Part shown: piece by piece, positions 557-7,515 of the stretch
Layout of the letters: every line of letters starts with the position of its first letter
Numbering within the stretch: the stretch's first letter is position 1
Translations under genes and position numbers: made by a program
The notes under the pieces: model-generated
Database searches by the model: none
What the model saw: only the letters and a program-made list of their open reading frames with translations
Told to the model about the DNA's origin: nothing
Assembly: GCA_047602735.1 (NCBI GenBank)
Contig: JBLKOK010000004.1
Coordinates: forward strand, 13,480-77,479
DNA length: 64,000 nucleotides
DNA from: Candidatus Woesearchaeota archaeon
Lineage (GTDB): Archaea > Nanobdellota > Nanobdellia > Woesearchaeales > 21-14-0-10-32-9
Direction: 5' to 3'

Positions 557-949
557 TTAATAACTCAAAACTTCAAGACCTTCTATTTGTTCAAAATCTT
601 TTTTATTCTTTGTAATTATTGTTTTTACTCCATTAGCCAAATATATTGCGGCTATTGTTGCATCTATTAAGCTTATAGTTTTGCCTTCTTTTTTTAATTT
701 CCAAAAGATATTTCTTGATAATTTAGCTGATGTTTTATCAAGTTCTAAACAGGGGTATACGTCAAATATTTTATCATAAAAAGTTTGTTCATGTTGATGT
801 TTATTATTTTTAGGGTCTATTCCTCTTATCAACTCTAAGTAGGTTAAAATATTCAAATACAAGTTTTGATTTATGCTTTGTACTAATTTTAGTGCTTTTT
901 TATCTTTTTTATAAAGATCAATTAATATTGTTGTATCTAATCCTATCAT
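557..949 (-). CDS. vapC: PIN-domain ribonuclease toxin (VapC-like)
   Basis: 130 aa with N-terminal MIGLDTTILID acidic PIN motif. It overlaps the upstream small antitoxin-like ORF by 4 nt. Confidence 0.7.
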   Translation of the reverse strand: MIGLDTTILIDLYKKDKKALKLVQSINQNLYLNILTYLELIRGIDPKNNKHQHEQTFYDKIFDVYPCLELDKTSAKLSRNIFWKLKKEGKTISLIDATIAAIYLANGVKTIITKNKKDFEQIEGLEVLSY

Positions 950-1209
950 TTTTTAAGATTTCTCTCGAATTCTTGTCTAAACTCTTTAAAAGATTGTTGT
1001 CTTTCTTTAAAATAATATTCGTCTACGTCTTCAGTACCGTATTTTTCTGCTAGTTCTGCAACGAGTAATCCGTCTTTTTTTTGCTCTTCTTTTAGTTTCA
1101 AAATAGCATCAGAAAAACTTTCATCCTCTTTTTTTATGGATTTTAGATAGTCGTATGCTTCTTTTTTTATAGATATATTAATACTACTCATATTCATATG
1201 AGTACTCAT
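946..1209 (-). CDS. vapB: VapB-type antitoxin (archaeal DUF217-like)
   Basis: 87 aa. INISIKKEAYDYLKSIKKEDESFSDAILKL resembles the archaeal antitoxin pattern IS(I/V)xxExYxxLxxxKxxxxSFSDvI. Translationally coupled to the PIN gene. Confidence 0.6.
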   Translation of the reverse strand: MSTHMNMSSINISIKKEAYDYLKSIKKEDESFSDAILKLKEEQKKDGLLVAELAEKYGTEDVDEYYFKERQQSFKEFRQEFERNLKK

Positions 1210-1257: not shown

Positions 1258-1419
1258 TTACTTTTTTTCCATGTAGTCTGTTTTACCACATGTTCTTCTA
1301 TCTGAGTGCTCTGCCATAAAATATCCTTCTCCTGCTTTAGGTGAAAATTTATTTTTTCTAACAAGCTTCCCTTCTTTAACTTCGTATAATTTCCATACTT
1401 GGTAAGGTTTTTTTGCCAT
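1258..1419 (-). CDS. rps27ae: 30S ribosomal protein S27ae (eS31), cysteine-depleted zinc ribbon
   Basis: 53-aa ORF below the track cutoff: MAKKPYQVWKLYEVKEGKLVRKNKFSPKAGEGYFMAEHSDRRTCGKTDYMEKK. It shows the conserved YEVxxGKLxRK...FMAEHxDRxxCGK pattern. Its start overlaps the S24e stop, the classic S24e-S27ae pair. Confidence 0.8.
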   Translation of the reverse strand: MAKKPYQVWKLYEVKEGKLVRKNKFSPKAGEGYFMAEHSDRRTCGKTDYMEKK

Positions 1420-1808
1420 TATTCTTTTGCCTCCTCGCTTGGTTGTTCTTCAGATGCTTCTTCTTCAGCTTTTGGCTCTTCTTTTGCTTCTGGTTTTTCC
1501 TCAGCTTTTGGTTCTTCTGCTGCAGGTTCTTCTTTTTTCTTTGCATGCTTTGTTAGAACGTGTTTAAATTCAACTTCGTTCATTGCATCTTCTTTATCAT
1601 AAACAAAAACTGTAGCGATAACTTCTTTATCTCCGTAGTGATTTTCTATTTTTTTAACTACTGTTAAATCTTCTTTTGTTTTTATCTTAGAAGCAATCTT
1701 TGATTTAAGATCTACTCTACTAGGTGTACTTTGTTCGTATTTCACACTAAAAACATATTCTGTTCTTGGTAGTGCTGATTTTAATTGTGATATTTGTTTT
1801 ATTTCCAT
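1419..1808 (-). CDS. rps24e: 30S ribosomal protein S24e (eS24) with Glu/Lys/Pro/Ala-rich C-terminal tail
   Basis: 129 aa. The N-terminal about 95 aa (LPRTEYVFSVKY...TPSRVDLKSKIA...YDKEDAMNEVEFKHVLTKH) fit eS24. Operon context with spt4, rpoE and S27ae. Confidence 0.85.
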   Translation of the reverse strand: MEIKQISQLKSALPRTEYVFSVKYEQSTPSRVDLKSKIASKIKTKEDLTVVKKIENHYGDKEVIATVFVYDKEDAMNEVEFKHVLTKHAKKKEEPAAEEPKAEEKPEAKEEPKAEEEASEEQPSEEAKE

Positions 1809-2654: not shown

Positions 2655-3062
2655 TTATGATTCAAAGTCTAAATACTTTTTTTGTTTGAGCACAATAACT
2701 TTAGCTTTTGTATTTTTTAACCTATTTTTTAGCTCCTTGTCCTGAGTACAAACAAAGCAATCCTTACTGCTAGCAAAGCTAACTATTGCGTCATCTGCAT
2801 AATCTTGTGTGTGAGTTATCACTTTAATCTTTTTTTGATGTATCATTATATAAGCAAGCTTGGCGTTAAAACCTTTCTTTTTAGCTCTGTGTTTTTCAAC
2901 AATTTTTTGAAGTTCTTTTTGTGTTGCTTCCATTATACAAAGCACATAAGATTCGTCTATTAATCTATCTATCTCACTAAATATATCGATTCCTAACTCT
3001 CCGGGTATCATCAAAAAATTAGTGTCTATTATTACTTTCTTTTTAAATAGTTTAAACATCAA
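2655..3062 (-). CDS. PIN-domain nuclease, Fcf1/Utp24-like
   Basis: 135 aa. VIIDTNFLMIPGELGIDIFSEI and CTQDKELKNRL motifs are typical of the archaeal Fcf1-type PIN protein usually found upstream of rpoE'. Confidence 0.65.
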   Translation of the reverse strand: MMFKLFKKKVIIDTNFLMIPGELGIDIFSEIDRLIDESYVLCIMEATQKELQKIVEKHRAKKKGFNAKLAYIMIHQKKIKVITHTQDYADDAIVSFASSKDCFVCTQDKELKNRLKNTKAKVIVLKQKKYLDFES

Positions 3063-3627
3063 GTATCACTCCTAATGGTCCTGGGTTTATTATTATTGTA
3101 TCGTTGATCTTATCAATTTTACCAAAATGCTCGTGTATATGGCCGCAAACAACTAGTCTGGGCTTATGTTGTGTTATTATGTTGGTGTAGCTCTCATTAC
3201 CGCAATGTCCAAAACCTACTTCGTCTAGACTAATGCCAAACGGAGGTCCGTGAAATAATATTATGGAATCTTTGGGTTTAGATTTGTCAAAAAATTTTTC
3301 TGCTTCTAAATCTTTGTGAGAAAACCCGTCTCCTCCATATCCTGCTATTTCTAAAGTCTTATACTTTATTTTTCTTTTATGTATAAATTCTAAATTTTTA
3401 AATTTTTTAATTTCTTCTTCCATTTCTTTAGGTTCTTCATGATTTCCGTGAATTAAATAACAGGGTTTGTTTAATGAATTGATCATACTAAGCAATTTAT
3501 TTAGTTTATTTCCAAACAAGGTGTAGTCTCCTGCTCCAAGTATTATTTCTGCTTGTTTAGCTTTTTCTTTTAATACTTCAAAACATTCATAATCTTCGTG
3601 TAGGTCTGCAAATACTAGTACTTTCAT
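3052..3627 (-). CDS. metallophosphoesterase (calcineurin-like, YfcE/MJ0936 class)
   Basis: 191 aa with MKVLVFADLHED, GDY, GNHE and GHIH metal-binding motifs in canonical order. Confidence 0.8.
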   Translation of the reverse strand: MKVLVFADLHEDYECFEVLKEKAKQAEIILGAGDYTLFGNKLNKLLSMINSLNKPCYLIHGNHEEPKEMEEEIKKFKNLEFIHKRKIKYKTLEIAGYGGDGFSHKDLEAEKFFDKSKPKDSIILFHGPPFGISLDEVGFGHCGNESYTNIITQHKPRLVVCGHIHEHFGKIDKINDTIIINPGPLGVILDV

Positions 3628-3933
3628 TCTTATTAGTATAATTATTTGTTTTTATATTATTTTCCTAAAACTCGTACTTTGAAACTACTAACAAATGATT
3701 AATAAGCTCGATGAAAAAATAAGGTTATTTTAAGCTTTATTTAATTAAAAAAACCTATTTTATAGTTTTTTAATATATAAAAAACTAAATTATTCATTTT
3801 AAATCTTTATTAAAACATATATTTAGTTTTATATTTAATTTTACAGAAATATTTATATATTATTTTAATTATCTAATTCATAAAAGGTTTTTTAATTTTT
3901 TTTCGGCCTTTATTTATGTTAGTTTAACTCAAA

Positions 3934-5073
3934 ATGGATTTAAATAATAAAATTGGTTTGGAAATAGAATTTTTGACTTTGGATAAGTCGTATAATGAAG
4001 TTAATGCTGCAGATATAGTTCTTGAAGTTGCAAGAGAGAATAATTTGAGATTCGTGGCTGAATGTTCTAAATGCATGGTGGAATTTAATAGTTTACCGGG
4101 TACTATTTTTGAAGTAATGAAAGATACAATTTTTCAATTAACTAAAATGAATGAGTTATTATCTGAAAAAAACATTTTACTTATGCCTATAGAATATCCT
4201 TTAAACGAGTATTTCGTTCCTCAAATAAGATCTGATTTAAGATATGATGCCAAATTACAATTATTAGGGTTTGATAAATTTAAAGTGTCTGGCCATACTG
4301 TGGCAACTCACATCCATTTTTCATTAGAAGATAATGATTATGATAAAGTTAAACAAATAAACGTGCTGCAATTTCTAGATGCATTATCTTTAGCGATTAC
4401 TTCTTCTAGTCCGAGGATTATAAAAGGGGATTATATACATAATTTGAGGGTGACTAATTATAGGTATTTTGTACATGGTGATTATCCTTTTCAAGGTGAT
4501 GCTCATGGTCTAATAAGTGATTATGAAGGTTATAATGCTTTGTTATTAGATGAGTTTAACAAATTTAAACAAAAAACGCTTTCTAAAGGTATTGACTTTG
4601 GTCAATCAATAAATCCTATTAATGCTATTTGGGGTCCTATAAGATTAAATAAGACATACAACACTGTTGAAATAAGGTCGCCTGGTGCAAATCCCAGTTT
4701 ATCTATGGTTTTTTCTCTGTGTACTTTGTTTATAGGTTTGCTTAGAAAAGTCAAATACGATGAAGAGTTTTATCTTGAGCTAAAAGATAAATTCGGGGGG
4801 GTTAATTTGTCTGAACTTGCAAAATCTGCGGCTAAAAAAGGTTTTGAAGATAAAAAAATAAGAGAATTATATGGGTTTTTATTAGAAAATGCATCTAATT
4901 ATTTGACTGAATCGGAATTTTTATTATTCTCTAATTTGAAAACACTTGTTGAGAGTGATCAAGTAAGAAAAATAATTATGGGTCCGGGGGATTCTAAATA
5001 TAAATATTGTTTATTACATAACATCTATTTAAAAGAATTGGGGGAGTTAAAGTATGAATCAATCAAAATTTAA
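3934..5073 (+). CDS. carboxylate-amine ligase, glutamate-cysteine ligase family 2 (GCS2/YbdK-like)
   Basis: 379 aa. Motifs IGLEIEFLTLD, CMVEFNSLP, ATHIHFS, LSLAITSSSPRIIKG and IWGPIRLNKTYNTVEIRSPG follow the GCS2 motif order. Confidence 0.8.
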   Translation: MDLNNKIGLEIEFLTLDKSYNEVNAADIVLEVARENNLRFVAECSKCMVEFNSLPGTIFEVMKDTIFQLTKMNELLSEKNILLMPIEYPLNEYFVPQIRSDLRYDAKLQLLGFDKFKVSGHTVATHIHFSLEDNDYDKVKQINVLQFLDALSLAITSSSPRIIKGDYIHNLRVTNYRYFVHGDYPFQGDAHGLISDYEGYNALLLDEFNKFKQKTLSKGIDFGQSINPINAIWGPIRLNKTYNTVEIRSPGANPSLSMVFSLCTLFIGLLRKVKYDEEFYLELKDKFGGVNLSELAKSAAKKGFEDKKIRELYGFLLENASNYLTESEFLLFSNLKTLVESDQVRKIIMGPGDSKYKYCLLHNIYLKELGELKYESIKI

Positions 5074-5905
5074 TTTAGGGGTTGTTTTAAGAGATAGTTT
5101 AAATAAATTAAGATATGATCCTGATCAAGAAGGAGACTATGAGTTAGTGGGTAGATTTGTAGATGGTCAAAATTATATTGATATAAATTCTCCTGATGAA
5201 ATAACTAATTCTCTTGATGCTGTTATTTTTATGCACTATCCATTTAATAAGAATTTAGCTAAGATTTTTTCTGAAAAAGAATCTGATGTATTTTTTTTAA
5301 ATTCTCCTTCTGGTGTTTTAAACACTTCCGAAAAAACTTTTGAACATTTCAACTTTTCAAAATATATGCCGGAGTCCTTATATATAAATAAAGATGTGTC
5401 TGATGAAAATATACTTGAGTTTTTCAATTCGTATGAGTCTGTAATAGTAAAGCCTATTAATGGTACGGGGGGAAAAGGGATAGATTTATACAAAAAAGGG
5501 AGTGAATTACCTGATTTAATTTCTAAATATAAATCTGAAAATTATATAGCTCAGGAGTTTATAAAAAATGAAGGTGATAAAAGAATATTGTGTTTAGGGG
5601 GGGACATTTTAGGTTATTTTGGCAGATTTAATGATTCAAATTATATTAATAATATCTCTTCTGGAGGATCTATGATTTCTGTTGATCTTTCTAAAGAAGA
5701 AGTTGATATGGCATTAGATATTTCTAACAGATTAGTTAAAGAAGGTATTTATTTTTCTGGATTAGATGTGATTGATGGCAAATTGATAGAGGTAAACACT
5801 GCTTCTCCTGGGGGGATAGATGTGGTTGAACCTTATAAATTCAAATCAAAAGACAATATGTATGACTATGCTAAACGTAAAGTTTATGATTTGTTTAAAA
5901 AATGA
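5054..5905 (+). CDS. ATP-grasp ligase, glutathione synthetase (GshB)-like
   Basis: 283 aa. Motifs SPSGVLNTSEKTF, VIVKPINGTGGKGIDLY, EFIKNEGDKRILCLGG, NNISSGGS and GLDVIDGKLIEVNTASPGG mirror prokaryotic GshB. Confidence 0.8.
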   Translation: MNQSKFNLGVVLRDSLNKLRYDPDQEGDYELVGRFVDGQNYIDINSPDEITNSLDAVIFMHYPFNKNLAKIFSEKESDVFFLNSPSGVLNTSEKTFEHFNFSKYMPESLYINKDVSDENILEFFNSYESVIVKPINGTGGKGIDLYKKGSELPDLISKYKSENYIAQEFIKNEGDKRILCLGGDILGYFGRFNDSNYINNISSGGSMISVDLSKEEVDMALDISNRLVKEGIYFSGLDVIDGKLIEVNTASPGGIDVVEPYKFKSKDNMYDYAKRKVYDLFKK

Positions 5906-7041
5906 AGGTGGATAATTCTCTTAAATTCATAATTGATTTTGATAAAAGGTTATTTGACTTTATTAATAATCAAAGATTGAACGAGCCATATTTGTTCTTG
6001 AGTCCTAATAATAGGGCAAATCAAGAATCTTTATTTTTTGAAAGATTGGCGGCGGGGGCTAGTTATGAACCTAGTTTTGAATATGATGATTTGGGGTTTG
6101 AGCAGGAAATAAATACTTTAAATTCTTTCAAAGAAGAAATAAAACTTGCAAAATTAGACGAGTTCTTCAATAAATTGAGGGGCTTTTATATTGATAAAAT
6201 AGATGAAATTATTTTATTTGCTAAATTAATAGAGTCTAGAGGTACTAATAAATTTAACAATTATTCTATACAAGCTTATGGTAGTCCTACTAAAAAAGAT
6301 TTTTTATTGGCTTTTTTTATTGCAAAGATCTATTATTATTACGGCGTGATAGGTAAATTTTTTAAAAAGAGATATTTATCTCGAGATGATATTTATCTTT
6401 ATTTTAAATCTTTTTTTTTTAAAAAAAACATGATTGGTTGGAAGTTAGAGTTTGATGATGGTTTATTATCTACTGCTGTATTAATTTCTCATGAGAAAAA
6501 AGTAGTTCTTAATGGGAGACATTCTTTTACAAAACAAGAGATAATGATGTTGATAAGACATGAATTGGGTGTTCATGCATTAAGAAATATAGAGGGGGGT
6601 AAGGTTCTTGATTTATTTGCTTTTGGTTTCGCTAAGTATGATTTTTTAGAGGAGGGTCTTGCTACTTATAAAGAGTTTGGATTTTATAATCCTTTAGATG
6701 TTTTAATAGGTCCTGCTCTAAAATTAATTGCGGTATATAAAGCAAATAATTTGAGTTTTTTTGAGACGTATAGTTATTTAAAGAAATTAACATCTAATTC
6801 TCAATTATCTTTTGATTTAACTCTGAGGGCTAAAAGAGGGACGGAATTTAATGTGGGTGCTTACACAAAGGATTTTTTATATTTTAAGGGATACACTAAA
6901 TTATTGGTTTTAACGTTGAAAAATATTTTTAATCCTTTTTTTATAAATTCTCTTTCTATAGGTAAAATAGGATTTGGTGAAATTAAAGATTTGGATTATT
7001 TGAGAAAGATAAAAAAATTAATTCTTAATAAACGTAACTAA
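5902..7041 (+). CDS. MATCAP/DUF1704-family putative zinc carboxypeptidase (QEGLA-motif protein family)
   Basis: 379 aa. HELGVH (HExxxH) is followed about 25 residues later by EEGLATY (family signature QEGLA). Overlaps the preceding ATP-grasp gene by 4 nt. Confidence 0.65.
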   Translation: MKVDNSLKFIIDFDKRLFDFINNQRLNEPYLFLSPNNRANQESLFFERLAAGASYEPSFEYDDLGFEQEINTLNSFKEEIKLAKLDEFFNKLRGFYIDKIDEIILFAKLIESRGTNKFNNYSIQAYGSPTKKDFLLAFFIAKIYYYYGVIGKFFKKRYLSRDDIYLYFKSFFFKKNMIGWKLEFDDGLLSTAVLISHEKKVVLNGRHSFTKQEIMMLIRHELGVHALRNIEGGKVLDLFAFGFAKYDFLEEGLATYKEFGFYNPLDVLIGPALKLIAVYKANNLSFFETYSYLKKLTSNSQLSFDLTLRAKRGTEFNVGAYTKDFLYFKGYTKLLVLTLKNIFNPFFINSLSIGKIGFGEIKDLDYLRKIKKLILNKRN

Positions 7042-7065
7042 TATACAAAAACGTATACAAATAGA

Positions 7066-7080
7066 AACATTTATATATTA
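7066..7080 (+). promoter_or_regulatory. BRE/TATA-like promoter element (aacaTTTATATAtta)
   Basis: TTTATATA at 7070-7077, about 25 nt upstream of ATG 7102. The same spacing recurs at many first genes of operons in this window. Confidence 0.45.
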
Positions 7081-7101
7081 TTTGTGTTATTTAGTATAAA
7101 T

Positions 7102-7515
7102 ATGGTAATATTATTTGATCAATATAACTTGCCTGAAAGTATATTTGAAATTATTTTCAGCACAGAACAGCAAGTCATAGTTGCAAACTTATTACTAGAA
7201 GAAATGAAGTTAAAAGATGGAGAGATAGGAAAGACAGAAATGTCTATGTTTGCTACAGCTCTTCATGATGGTACGCTCATAAAACCAAAAGAATCGAAAG
7301 GTTTTTCCACAAAGAAACCTGAACCAATATCGTACAATAAAAGACAGTTTTATGATAGGATATTAACGCCTATGAAAACTATGGGTATGATAGATTATGA
7401 CATGTACAAGAAAACTTACAAAATTAGCGAAAAGTTCAATAAGAATATGATGAGAATTGGACTTTTATGGCTTCAAGAATTAAGAAAGCCGCCTAAAGCT
7501 CATACATTTAAGTAA
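7102..7515 (+). CDS. hypothetical protein
   Basis: Track ORF 7084-7515 starts at GTG. The in-frame ATG at 7102 sits about 25 nt after a TATA-like box. No recognisable domain. Confidence 0.4.
   Translation: MVILFDQYNLPESIFEIIFSTEQQVIVANLLLEEMKLKDGEIGKTEMSMFATALHDGTLIKPKESKGFSTKKPEPISYNKRQFYDRILTPMKTMGMIDYDMYKKTYKISEKFNKNMMRIGLLWLQELRKPPKAHTFK

Follow-up and report, generated by a model that had tools for sequence, protein, structure and literature searches.

A GCS2-fold ligase, a shortened GshB-like ATP-grasp ligase and a predicted MATCAP-family carboxypeptidase encoded by an operon-like cassette of a Woesearchaeota genome

The 64,000-nucleotide stretch of a Candidatus Woesearchaeota archaeon genome analysed here (contig JBLKOK010000004.1, positions 13,480 to 77,479 of the forward strand; hereafter the window) carries three adjacent open reading frames, ORF1 to ORF3, which form a single operon-like unit of 3.1 kb (Table 1). 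They encode a divergent ligase of the GCS2/YbdK fold, a GshB-like ATP-grasp ligase of reduced size and a member of the MATCAP/DUF1704 peptidase family, and the catalytic motifs of all three enzymes are intact as far as the translations tell. The genes most likely constitute one translationally coupled operon, an accessory module that occupies a genomic slot of variable content. We propose that the two ligases act in succession to build a short, probably gamma-glutamyl, non-ribosomal peptide other than glutathione, and that the carboxypeptidase would trim it, a proposal whose chances of being right we put at about even.

A previous reading of the window, made without database searches (the sequence-only reading), had described three tightly packed genes on one strand, and the ORFs, their overlaps and all of the motifs that it quoted are present in the translations. 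ORF1 and ORF2 overlap by 20 nt (5054-5073), and ORF2 and ORF3 by 4 nt (ATGA, 5902-5905). Overlaps are also found in the orthologous cassettes L004 and L096 (L numbers denote the loci compared), and the start codons of the three genes agree with orthologue alignments. The translation of ORF1 contains GLEIEF, ATHIHFS, LSLAITSSSPR and VEIRSPG, that of ORF2 contains VIVKPINGTGGKGI, GDKRILCLGG, NNISSGGS and LIEVNTASPGG, and that of ORF3 contains HELGVH at residues 220-225 and EEGLA at residues 250-254. The assignments of the products to the GCS2/YbdK, GshB-like ATP-grasp and MATCAP/DUF1704 families all hold, for ORF2 by sequence, for ORF3 by sequence and structure model and for ORF1 by the fold of its structure model. 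In addition, the earlier attribution of the DNA to a DPANN-like archaeon agrees with the label of a 100%-identical copy of the ORF3 protein, which is Candidatus Woesearchaeota archaeon.

ORF3 matches the Pfam MATCAP model (PF08014) over residues 50-369 of 379 with 121.9 bits (cut-off 27; E = 3.9e-35), and human MATCAP is its top structural match, so both the model search and the structure comparison confirmed the family. It also matches TIGR02421, a hypothetical equivalog named 'QEGLA motif protein', with 116.8 bits (E = 1.3e-33), which is below the cut-off of 338.65; relative to that group it stands as a remote clade of its own. In an alignment of ten homologues, the residues H220, E221 and H225 of the HExxxH motif and E250, E251, G252 and L253 of the EEGLA motif are invariant, as are R309, K311, R312 and G313. 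A profile made from the ORF3 alignment finds human MATCAP (7z5g and 7z6s) with an E-value of 4.5e-29, the human HEIGTH and EEGLA being aligned to the archaeal motifs. The AlphaFold2 (AF2) model of ORF3 has a predicted local distance difference test score (pLDDT) of 91.1, and in the PDB comparison human MATCAP (7z5g/7z6s) takes the first five places (E = 1e-9; template modelling (TM) score 0.58 when normalised by the query and 0.66 when normalised by the target); M32 metallocarboxypeptidases match the model weakly and rank after MATCAP. The database name of the protein is 'tyrosine/phenylalanine carboxypeptidase domain-containing protein'. By sequence and by fold, ORF3 is a clear member of the MATCAP/DUF1704 family, and its carboxypeptidase activity is a prediction from these matches.

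According to its structure model, ORF1 is a divergent member of the GCS2/YbdK fold. It scores 20.7 bits with Pfam GCS2 (PF04107), for which the gathering score is 21, and 40.9 bits (E = 1.6e-10) with the YbdK family model TIGR02050, for which the curated cut-off is 176.4; its orthologue in L095 scores 47 bits with Pfam GCS2. The glutamate-cysteine ligase models gave 14-34 bits against cut-offs of 332-409, among them 30.6 vs 332 bits for NF010041, 26.5 vs 409 for NF010043 and 14.3 vs 395 for NF010045. The AF2 model, built with 15 homologues, has a pLDDT of 91.7. Its best PDB matches are YbdK (1r8g, TM 0.65-0.69) and a plant glutamate-cysteine ligase (2gwc, TM 0.70), with E-values of about 1e-11 to 1e-10, followed by the bifunctional GshF and E. 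coli GshA and, more distantly, by PafA/Dop and glutamine synthetases. E50, H126, H128, R172, R177 and E246 are invariant across the 15 homologues, and E10, E12, R237 and R248 are nearly so. The family is small: an exhaustive HMMER search of 1.84 billion representatives returned 133 at E<=1e-3 and 14 at E<=1e-30. A word-indexed homology search with the ORF1 protein returned no relatives, and a metagenome scan for relatives yielded two loci only. Ligases of the GCS/GS fold with known function activate the gamma-carboxylate of glutamate. To our knowledge, no physiological reaction has been assigned to YbdK-type ligases since the structure was solved in 2004.

The closest relatives of ORF2 are GshB-type enzymes. 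Its Pfam matches are GSH-S_ATP (3.4e-31) and RimK (1e-11), and it aligns with E. coli GshB (1gsa) at 1.9e-14, the alignment being confined to GshB residues 106-294. No Pfam match to the N-terminal domain GSH-S_N (PF02951) was obtained, nor to the Rimk_N domain, unlike the RimK-type MATCAP neighbours in L042 and L074. ORF2 is below the cut-offs of the GshB equivalogs NF003573 (122.5 vs 272 bits) and TIGR01380 (108.6 vs 299.05 bits) and of the RimK family TIGR00768 (76.1 vs 143.4); it is also below the gathering score of TTL (PF03133; 19.1 vs 20.1 bits), matching over residues 104-172 only. ORF2 and its four orthologues were aligned with two full-length GshB-like MATCAP neighbours (L017 and L083) and E. 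coli GshB. ORF2 retains the equivalents of K125, K160, D208, R210, R225, N235, D273, E281 and N283, which are the nucleotide, Mg and acyl-phosphate residues. Compared with the full GshB-like proteins of L017 and L083, its pre-ATP-grasp domain lacks about 50-60 residues, and the large lid loop is shorter by 7 residues; we therefore refer to this form as mini-GshB. In the five cassette orthologues, the position of GshB Arg233 is occupied by I, R, R, V and T, and that of Arg241 by S, K, K, H and F. According to work of Tanaka et al. in 1992, the flexible-loop residue Arg233 is reportedly critical for catalysis by E. coli GshB. ORF2 therefore looks like an active ligase, and on these comparisons it is not an orthologue of glutathione synthase. 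GshB-like paralogues are routinely annotated as 'glutathione synthetase'. The glutathione flavour that the sequence-only reading gave to the locus was not sustained: since the cut-offs of the GshA and GshB equivalogs are missed, GSH-S_N is absent and Arg233 and Arg241 are not conserved, the cassette is not one for canonical glutathione synthesis.

The triad recurs in four divergent Woesearchaeota-type genomes. It has the same gene order in an identical slot in L002, L004 and L096/L097/L100, and it always lies between a metallophosphoesterase gene and a homologue of ORF 7102-7515. The triad enzymes of L002, L004 and L096/L097 are 35-44% identical to the window proteins. Because the same gene order recurs at only this level of identity, the triad is more than a chance association, and the synteny across archaeal relatives bears out the cassette that had been proposed. 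The metallophosphoesterase gene borders the slot in L002, L004, L093-L096, L099 and L101, and the genes inside the slot vary. L101/L102 contain a GCS2-like gene, an ATP-grasp gene (YheCD/RimK-like) and a gene for a Peptidase_S66 LD-carboxypeptidase, followed by the ORF 7102-7515 homologue. In L099, genes for the GCS2-like ligase and mini-GshB are accompanied by those for a DUF3335 protein (C39-like cysteine peptidase) and GATase_4. L095 contains a GCS2-like gene, a gene for a 427-aa protein and a C39-like peptidase gene, with genes for Peptidase_M49 and a MarR/AsnC regulator upstream; Peptidase_M49 is also encoded upstream of the MATCAP triad of L096, and in L098 a DUF3335 gene stands beside a GCS2-like gene. 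The cassette is absent from L093 and L094, the two closest relatives as judged by ORF 7102-7515 (88%), where genes for a GFO/IDH/MocA oxidoreductase and a glycosyltransferase occupy the slot on the opposite strand. The variants other than L093 and L094 keep the GCS2-like gene, so the GCS2-like ligase is what stays constant in this lineage. An ATP-grasp ligase usually comes next, and the third position is taken by non-homologous peptidases of the metallo, serine or cysteine type.

Two variants have second genes without a detectable family, L095:6179-7459 (427 aa) and L103:2814-3557 (247 aa), which occupy the position held by the ATP-grasp ligase in other slot variants. No hidden ATP-grasp enzyme was detected in the 427-aa protein, for which hhalign gave a probability of 2%. 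A small carrier or precursor, LysW-like or resembling the precursors of RiPPs (peptides made by ribosomes and modified after translation), was also considered. Since no ORF of at least 20 aa was found in 3628-3933, there is no such gene upstream of the window cassette. Meanwhile, a 44-aa ORF lies directly upstream of the GCS2-like gene in L101 (1758-1892) and L102 (19-153). It is the sole candidate small gene beside any cassette variant; however, it is low-complexity and AT-rich and is probably spurious, and the carrier or precursor was dismissed.

The linkage of MATCAP with ATP-grasp ligases extends beyond this cassette to many other microbes whose genomes are very small. A scan of one genome per species returned 162 relatives, mostly from DPANN archaea and bacteria of the candidate phyla radiation (CPR), and the 80 loci kept were sorted in a hidden Markov model survey that was checked with Pfam. 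HExxxH is present in 88 of 88 MATCAP domains and (E/Q)EG(L/I) in 85. MATCAP is fused to ATPgrasp_ST in proteins of about 790-815 aa at 32 of the 80 loci, mostly from Peregrinibacteria/Peribacteria, Gracilibacteria and Altimarinota, with single Nitrospirota and unclassified bacterial metagenome-assembled genomes (MAGs) besides, and a membrane protein with PKD and 7TM_transglut domains is encoded directly upstream of the fusion in 31 of these 32 (e.g. L027:3089-7056, L035, L059 and L091). An ATP-grasp gene is adjacent to MATCAP at ten loci and nearby at one; 21 loci show none within a flank of at least 1.5 kb on both sides, and 16 are too truncated to judge. The adjacent ligases are RimK-type (Rimk_N+RimK) in L042, L051, L074, L079, L081 and L086, some of them with two tandem MATCAP paralogues, and full GshB-type in L017 and L083; L031 has two RimK-like genes. 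On a rough neighbour-joining tree, the MATCAP clades follow the type of ligase partner, and the cassette proteins form a monophyletic group that diverges the most. The linkage of MATCAP with ATP-grasp ligases is thus general outside eukaryotes and reflects repeated, independent coupling.

Some of the surveyed loci have further features. In L051:1920-4197, L074:4726-7008 and L086:4817-7059, a RimK-type ligase gene is followed by the two tandem MATCAP paralogues, which fall into separate clades and both carry HExxxH. In a Woesearchaeota MAG (L017:5592-8260), a gene of the SET-domain (protein methyltransferase) family comes after MATCAP and a full GshB-like gene. Phocoenobacter atlanticus (L049:661-4458) encodes a 1,266-aa protein in which NB-ARC (STAND NTPase) and TPR repeats are joined to MATCAP at the C-terminus; judging from the domains, this architecture is typical of conflict or immunity sensors and MATCAP is the presumed effector, and PADLOC gave no match for the protein.

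The sequence-only reading had described the pairing of a RimK-like ATP-grasp with a QEGLA protein as noted mainly in proteobacteria. The pairing does exist there; however, the partner is GshB-type and usually comes with an FGase domain, and DPANN archaea and CPR bacteria show the pairing much more prominently. The gene order on Shinella pShin-02 (L105:4391-8135) is FGase, MATCAP and 'glutathione synthetase'; in Photobacterium sp. GJ3 (L106:3110-6113) a full GshB-like gene overlaps a gene for an FGase–MATCAP fusion, and in Vibrio sp. HDW18 (L104:5065-7056) such a fusion occurs alone. In P. damselae, genes with consecutive tags annotated as 'GshB' and QEGLA were induced 38-fold and 27.5-fold at low salinity, which was read there as glutathione synthesis (PMC10308900).

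In the mechanism that we propose, the GCS2/YbdK-fold ligase would use ATP to turn a carboxylate, by family precedent the gamma-carboxylate of glutamate, into an acyl-phosphate and would join it with a second amino acid through the amine of the latter. ATP-grasp enzymes of the GshB and RimK types attach an amino acid to a C-terminal carboxylate that they have activated; the GshB-like ligase would accordingly activate the C-terminal carboxylate of the first product and add at least one residue. The MATCAP-like zinc carboxypeptidase would then take off one or more C-terminal residues. Because the ligase adds and the carboxypeptidase removes a C-terminal residue, ORF2 and ORF3 would be expected to catalyse opposite reactions at the same end of the molecule, and the last step, as the exact reverse of the second, would set length, turnover or recycling of the product. 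The substrates of those S66, GATase_4 (EgtC type), M49 and FGase enzymes that have been characterised are small peptides or N-acyl or gamma-glutamyl compounds, so the families that accompany or replace the cassette genes favour a free small peptide. It is also favoured because no substrate gene accompanies the cassette, the neighbours being backbone genes that cassette-less relatives also have. In addition, FGase and MATCAP go together with a GshB-like ligase in the proteobacterial relatives, and the P. damselae pair is co-induced.

Several observations weigh against a small peptide as the product. We know of no prokaryotic MATCAP/DUF1704 member with a known function or biochemistry, and the usual substrates of C39-type peptidases are peptides or proteins. 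Part of the lid loop and much of the N-domain, which enclose the small substrate in GshB, have been lost from ORF2, and therefore a bulky acceptor would also fit. The sister MATCAP clades pair with RimK-type ligases, and the characterised RimK modifies ribosomal protein S6. Glutamate, moreover, is suggested as the activated carboxylate by family precedent only. Finally, the only characterised enzymes of the MATCAP family act on protein tails (PMC10499314).

These observations bring in a second explanation, reversible tagging of a protein C-terminus, which we consider possible but somewhat doubtful. Here the ATP-grasp enzyme, primed or complemented by the GCS2-like ligase, would add amino acids to a protein C-terminus or a glutamate side chain, and the MATCAP-like peptidase would remove them. 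Such a cycle would parallel RimK/RimB on S6 and the opposition of TTL/TTLL and MATCAP/TMCP on tubulin: tubulin tails are detyrosinated and deglutamylated by the MATCAP/TMCP enzymes that have been characterised (PMC10499314), and a prokaryotic precedent is given by RimK/RimB, a ligase and a protease documented to work as a pair on the tail of S6. Genuine RimK-type ligases accompany MATCAP at other DPANN loci, where the ligase or the MATCAP gene is sometimes present twice, and the fusions in 32 loci are mostly from CPR bacteria. The reduced N-domain and shortened lid loop of the cassette ATP-grasp are consistent with tagging as well, and PafA, a protein ligase, is among the structural neighbours of the ORF1 model. 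That prokaryotic ATP-grasp peptide tags may be reversed by a linked peptidase is a published concept, at least as it is outlined in PMC3495828. However, the cassette encodes no candidate target, and small substrates are suggested by the alternative third genes (S66 and GATase_4) together with the bacterial FGase partners. Both readings offered from the sequence, a gamma-glutamyl-type peptide with a trimming peptidase and a C-terminal writer/eraser pair, are still the leading explanations, and the earlier note as a whole was partly supported.

Two of the proteins that had been named as speculative partners, ORF 7102-7515 and eS24, do not help to identify a target. ORF 7102-7515 is 77-88% identical in relatives whose cassette enzymes are 35-44% identical, matches 3,784 clusters that are all labelled Woesearchaeota, Nanoarchaeota or DPANN, and shows 74-88% identity across at least 120 listed homologues, with the invariant core SYNKRQFYDRILTPMK...DYD.YKKTYK and a variable, basic C-terminus. 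It has no match in Pfam or NCBIfam and no significant match in a PDB profile search; one weak PHROG match is to a 'transcriptional regulator' (E = 0.0046). It looks like a core lineage-specific protein that is far more conserved than its neighbours. Because it is widely conserved and present beside other slot contents, including those of the close relatives L093 and L094 that lack the cassette, ORF 7102-7515 is a backbone gene at the right edge of the slot. It was rejected as a substrate or partner on account of its variable C-terminus, its thousands of clusters and its position beside unrelated slot contents; thousands of genomes carry the gene without the cassette. Likewise, a tail similar to the acidic tail of eS24 is found in the cassette-less relative L093, so this tail is a lineage trait rather than a cassette-linked target. 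FtsZ, as a tubulin-like target, found no support either, since the window contains no FtsZ gene and the FtsZ tails of relatives are ordinary.

The features of the cassette and its flank are collected in Table 1. By Pfam, the left flank contains VapBC, eS24, Spt4, Rpb7, PIN_9 and the metallophosphoesterase, and the right flank contains ORF 7102-7515 followed by a pilus-type T2SSF-T2SSF-T2SSE operon. The VapBC pair of the window is absent at the corresponding position in L093/L094. The G+C content gives no signal of horizontal transfer, as the cassette (0.28-0.29) equals its flanks, and a reading as a defence system found no meaningful match in PADLOC or PHROGs.

Table 1. Features of the cassette, its slot boundaries and the left flank in the window
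Feature	Position	Strand	Remark
ORF1: divergent GCS2/YbdK-fold carboxylate-amine ligase, 379 aa	3934..5073	+	First gene of the operon
ORF2: mini-GshB ATP-grasp ligase, 283 aa	5054..5905	+	Shortened pre-ATP-grasp N-domain and lid loop
ORF3: MATCAP/DUF1704-family zinc carboxypeptidase (predicted), 379 aa	5902..7041	+	Profile, motif and fold matches
AT-rich divergent intergenic region, 306 bp	3628..3933	.	Presumed promoter region of the operon
Metallophosphoesterase, backbone gene	3052..3627	-	Left slot boundary, outside the module; Pfam Metallophos 9.2e-17
DPANN protein, 137 aa, backbone gene	7102..7515	+	Right slot boundary; start codon backed by alignment
VapB-antitoxin/PIN-domain (VapC) pair	557-1209	-	Inserted beside the eS24–Spt4–Rpb7 block
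eS24 with long Glu/Lys/Pro-rich acidic C-terminal extension	1419-1808	-	

A broader version of the tagging idea is that the ATP-grasp/MATCAP pairs of DPANN and CPR organisms, including the window operon, are prokaryotic forerunners of the writer/eraser logic of the tubulin code and regulate a cellular protein by putting amino acids on its C-terminus and taking them off again, the GCS2-fold ligase being a separate initiating or branching enzyme in the cassette clade; we regard this as unlikely. A cell-surface or exported product, whereby a pilin, an exported peptide or a surface polymer containing amino acids would be made or decorated by the ligases and matured or edited by the peptidase, seems very unlikely. 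Its appeal comes from the surroundings: the slot of the closest relatives holds the glycosyltransferase and the GFO/IDH/MocA oxidoreductase, the slot adjoins the T2SSE/T2SSF operon, and the PKD and 7TM_transglut membrane protein that precedes the ATPgrasp_ST–MATCAP fusion at 31 of 32 loci resembles Pseudomonas RloB/RloC. However, no component for export or for the membrane is encoded in the archaeal cassette itself, the ATP-grasp of the cassette is GshB-like and not ATPgrasp_ST, and the adjacency to the pilus operon is backbone synteny common to cassette-less genomes. Genuine gamma-glutamylcysteine/glutathione biosynthesis by a GshA-like and then a GshB-like enzyme, with MATCAP as a glutathione-degrading carboxypeptidase, is the least credible of all. 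In its favour, the gene order resembles that of the two-step pathway, GshB is what ORF2 is most similar to in Pfam, NCBIfam and the PDB, and bona fide glutamate-cysteine ligases are among the best structural matches of ORF1. However, ORF1 is far under the glutamate-cysteine ligase cut-offs and just under the Pfam GCS2 threshold, ORF2 fails NF003573 and TIGR01380 and lacks GSH-S_N, the equivalents of Arg233 and Arg241 vary across orthologues, the lid loop is shortened, and the third gene is freely swapped for other peptidases.

Our literature search found no description of a GCS2, mini-GshB and MATCAP operon, and nothing linking MATCAP/DUF1704 with ATP-grasp ligases in prokaryotes, the study of Iyer et al. 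(2009) being considered through its summary in PMC3495828. The cassette brings three poorly characterised enzyme groups together in one compact operon that is suited to in vitro reconstitution. Outside eukaryotes, MATCAP is habitually tied to ATP-grasp ligases, by fusion in CPR bacteria and as a neighbouring gene in DPANN archaea and proteobacteria, and this linkage bears on the origin of the tubulin tyrosination/glutamylation machinery as well as on the use of energetically costly peptide ligases by genome-reduced symbionts. It also calls for caution in annotating such archaeal loci as glutathione biosynthesis.

Among known systems, the GshA/GCS2, GshB and EgtA/EgtC enzymes resemble the cassette in the succession of a GCS-fold ligase and a GshB-like ATP-grasp, to which L099 adds GATase_4 of the EgtC family; EgtC removes a gamma-glutamyl group. 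The cassette differs in that all equivalog cut-offs are failed, GSH-S_N and Arg233 are missing and a dedicated carboxypeptidase is part of the operon. The proteobacterial QEGLA loci (TIGR02421) of Shinella pShin-02 and Photobacterium sp. GJ3 share with it a MATCAP-family protein beside a GshB-like ATP-grasp annotated as 'glutathione synthetase'; however, the bacterial ligase keeps GSH-S_N, an FGase amidohydrolase is fused to the peptidase or encoded beside it, a GCS2-like gene is lacking, and the window protein is far under the TIGR02421 cut-off. In the Pseudomonas RimK/RimB and RloABC systems, the residues that an ATP-grasp ligase adds at a C-terminus are trimmed by a peptidase encoded together with it. 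The likeness lies in this combination of a ligase with a trimming peptidase, and the CPR relatives mirror RloB/RloC with MATCAP as the peptidase; in contrast to the cassette, the Pseudomonas peptidase is retropepsin-like (RloA), the S6 target is bacterial and there is no GCS2-type ligase, and ORF2 is under the RimK cut-off. The same logic of ligase and peptidase is found in the peptide-tagging and peptide-synthesis operons predicted by Iyer, Abhiman, Burroughs and Aravind (2009), where, in the summary given in PMC3495828, ligases of the ATP-grasp and/or GS fold (COG2170) occur with a peptidase that is predicted to reverse or process what they ligate, the ATP-grasp ligases being compared with TTL enzymes; as far as that summary goes, these systems differ in having transglutaminase-like peptidases, alpha-E domains and Anbu. 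The tubulin cycle (TTL/TTLL versus MATCAP/TMCP, KIAA0895L/KIAA0895) is set apart by the lack of tubulin in the window, by the ligase, which is GshB-like and not TTL, and by the arrangement in one operon with an additional GCS2-fold ligase. However, the peptidase belongs to the same family, PF08014, with HExxxH, EEGLA and the fold match to 7z5g, and the likeness extends to its partnership with an ATP-grasp amino-acid ligase that is expected to run the opposite reaction.

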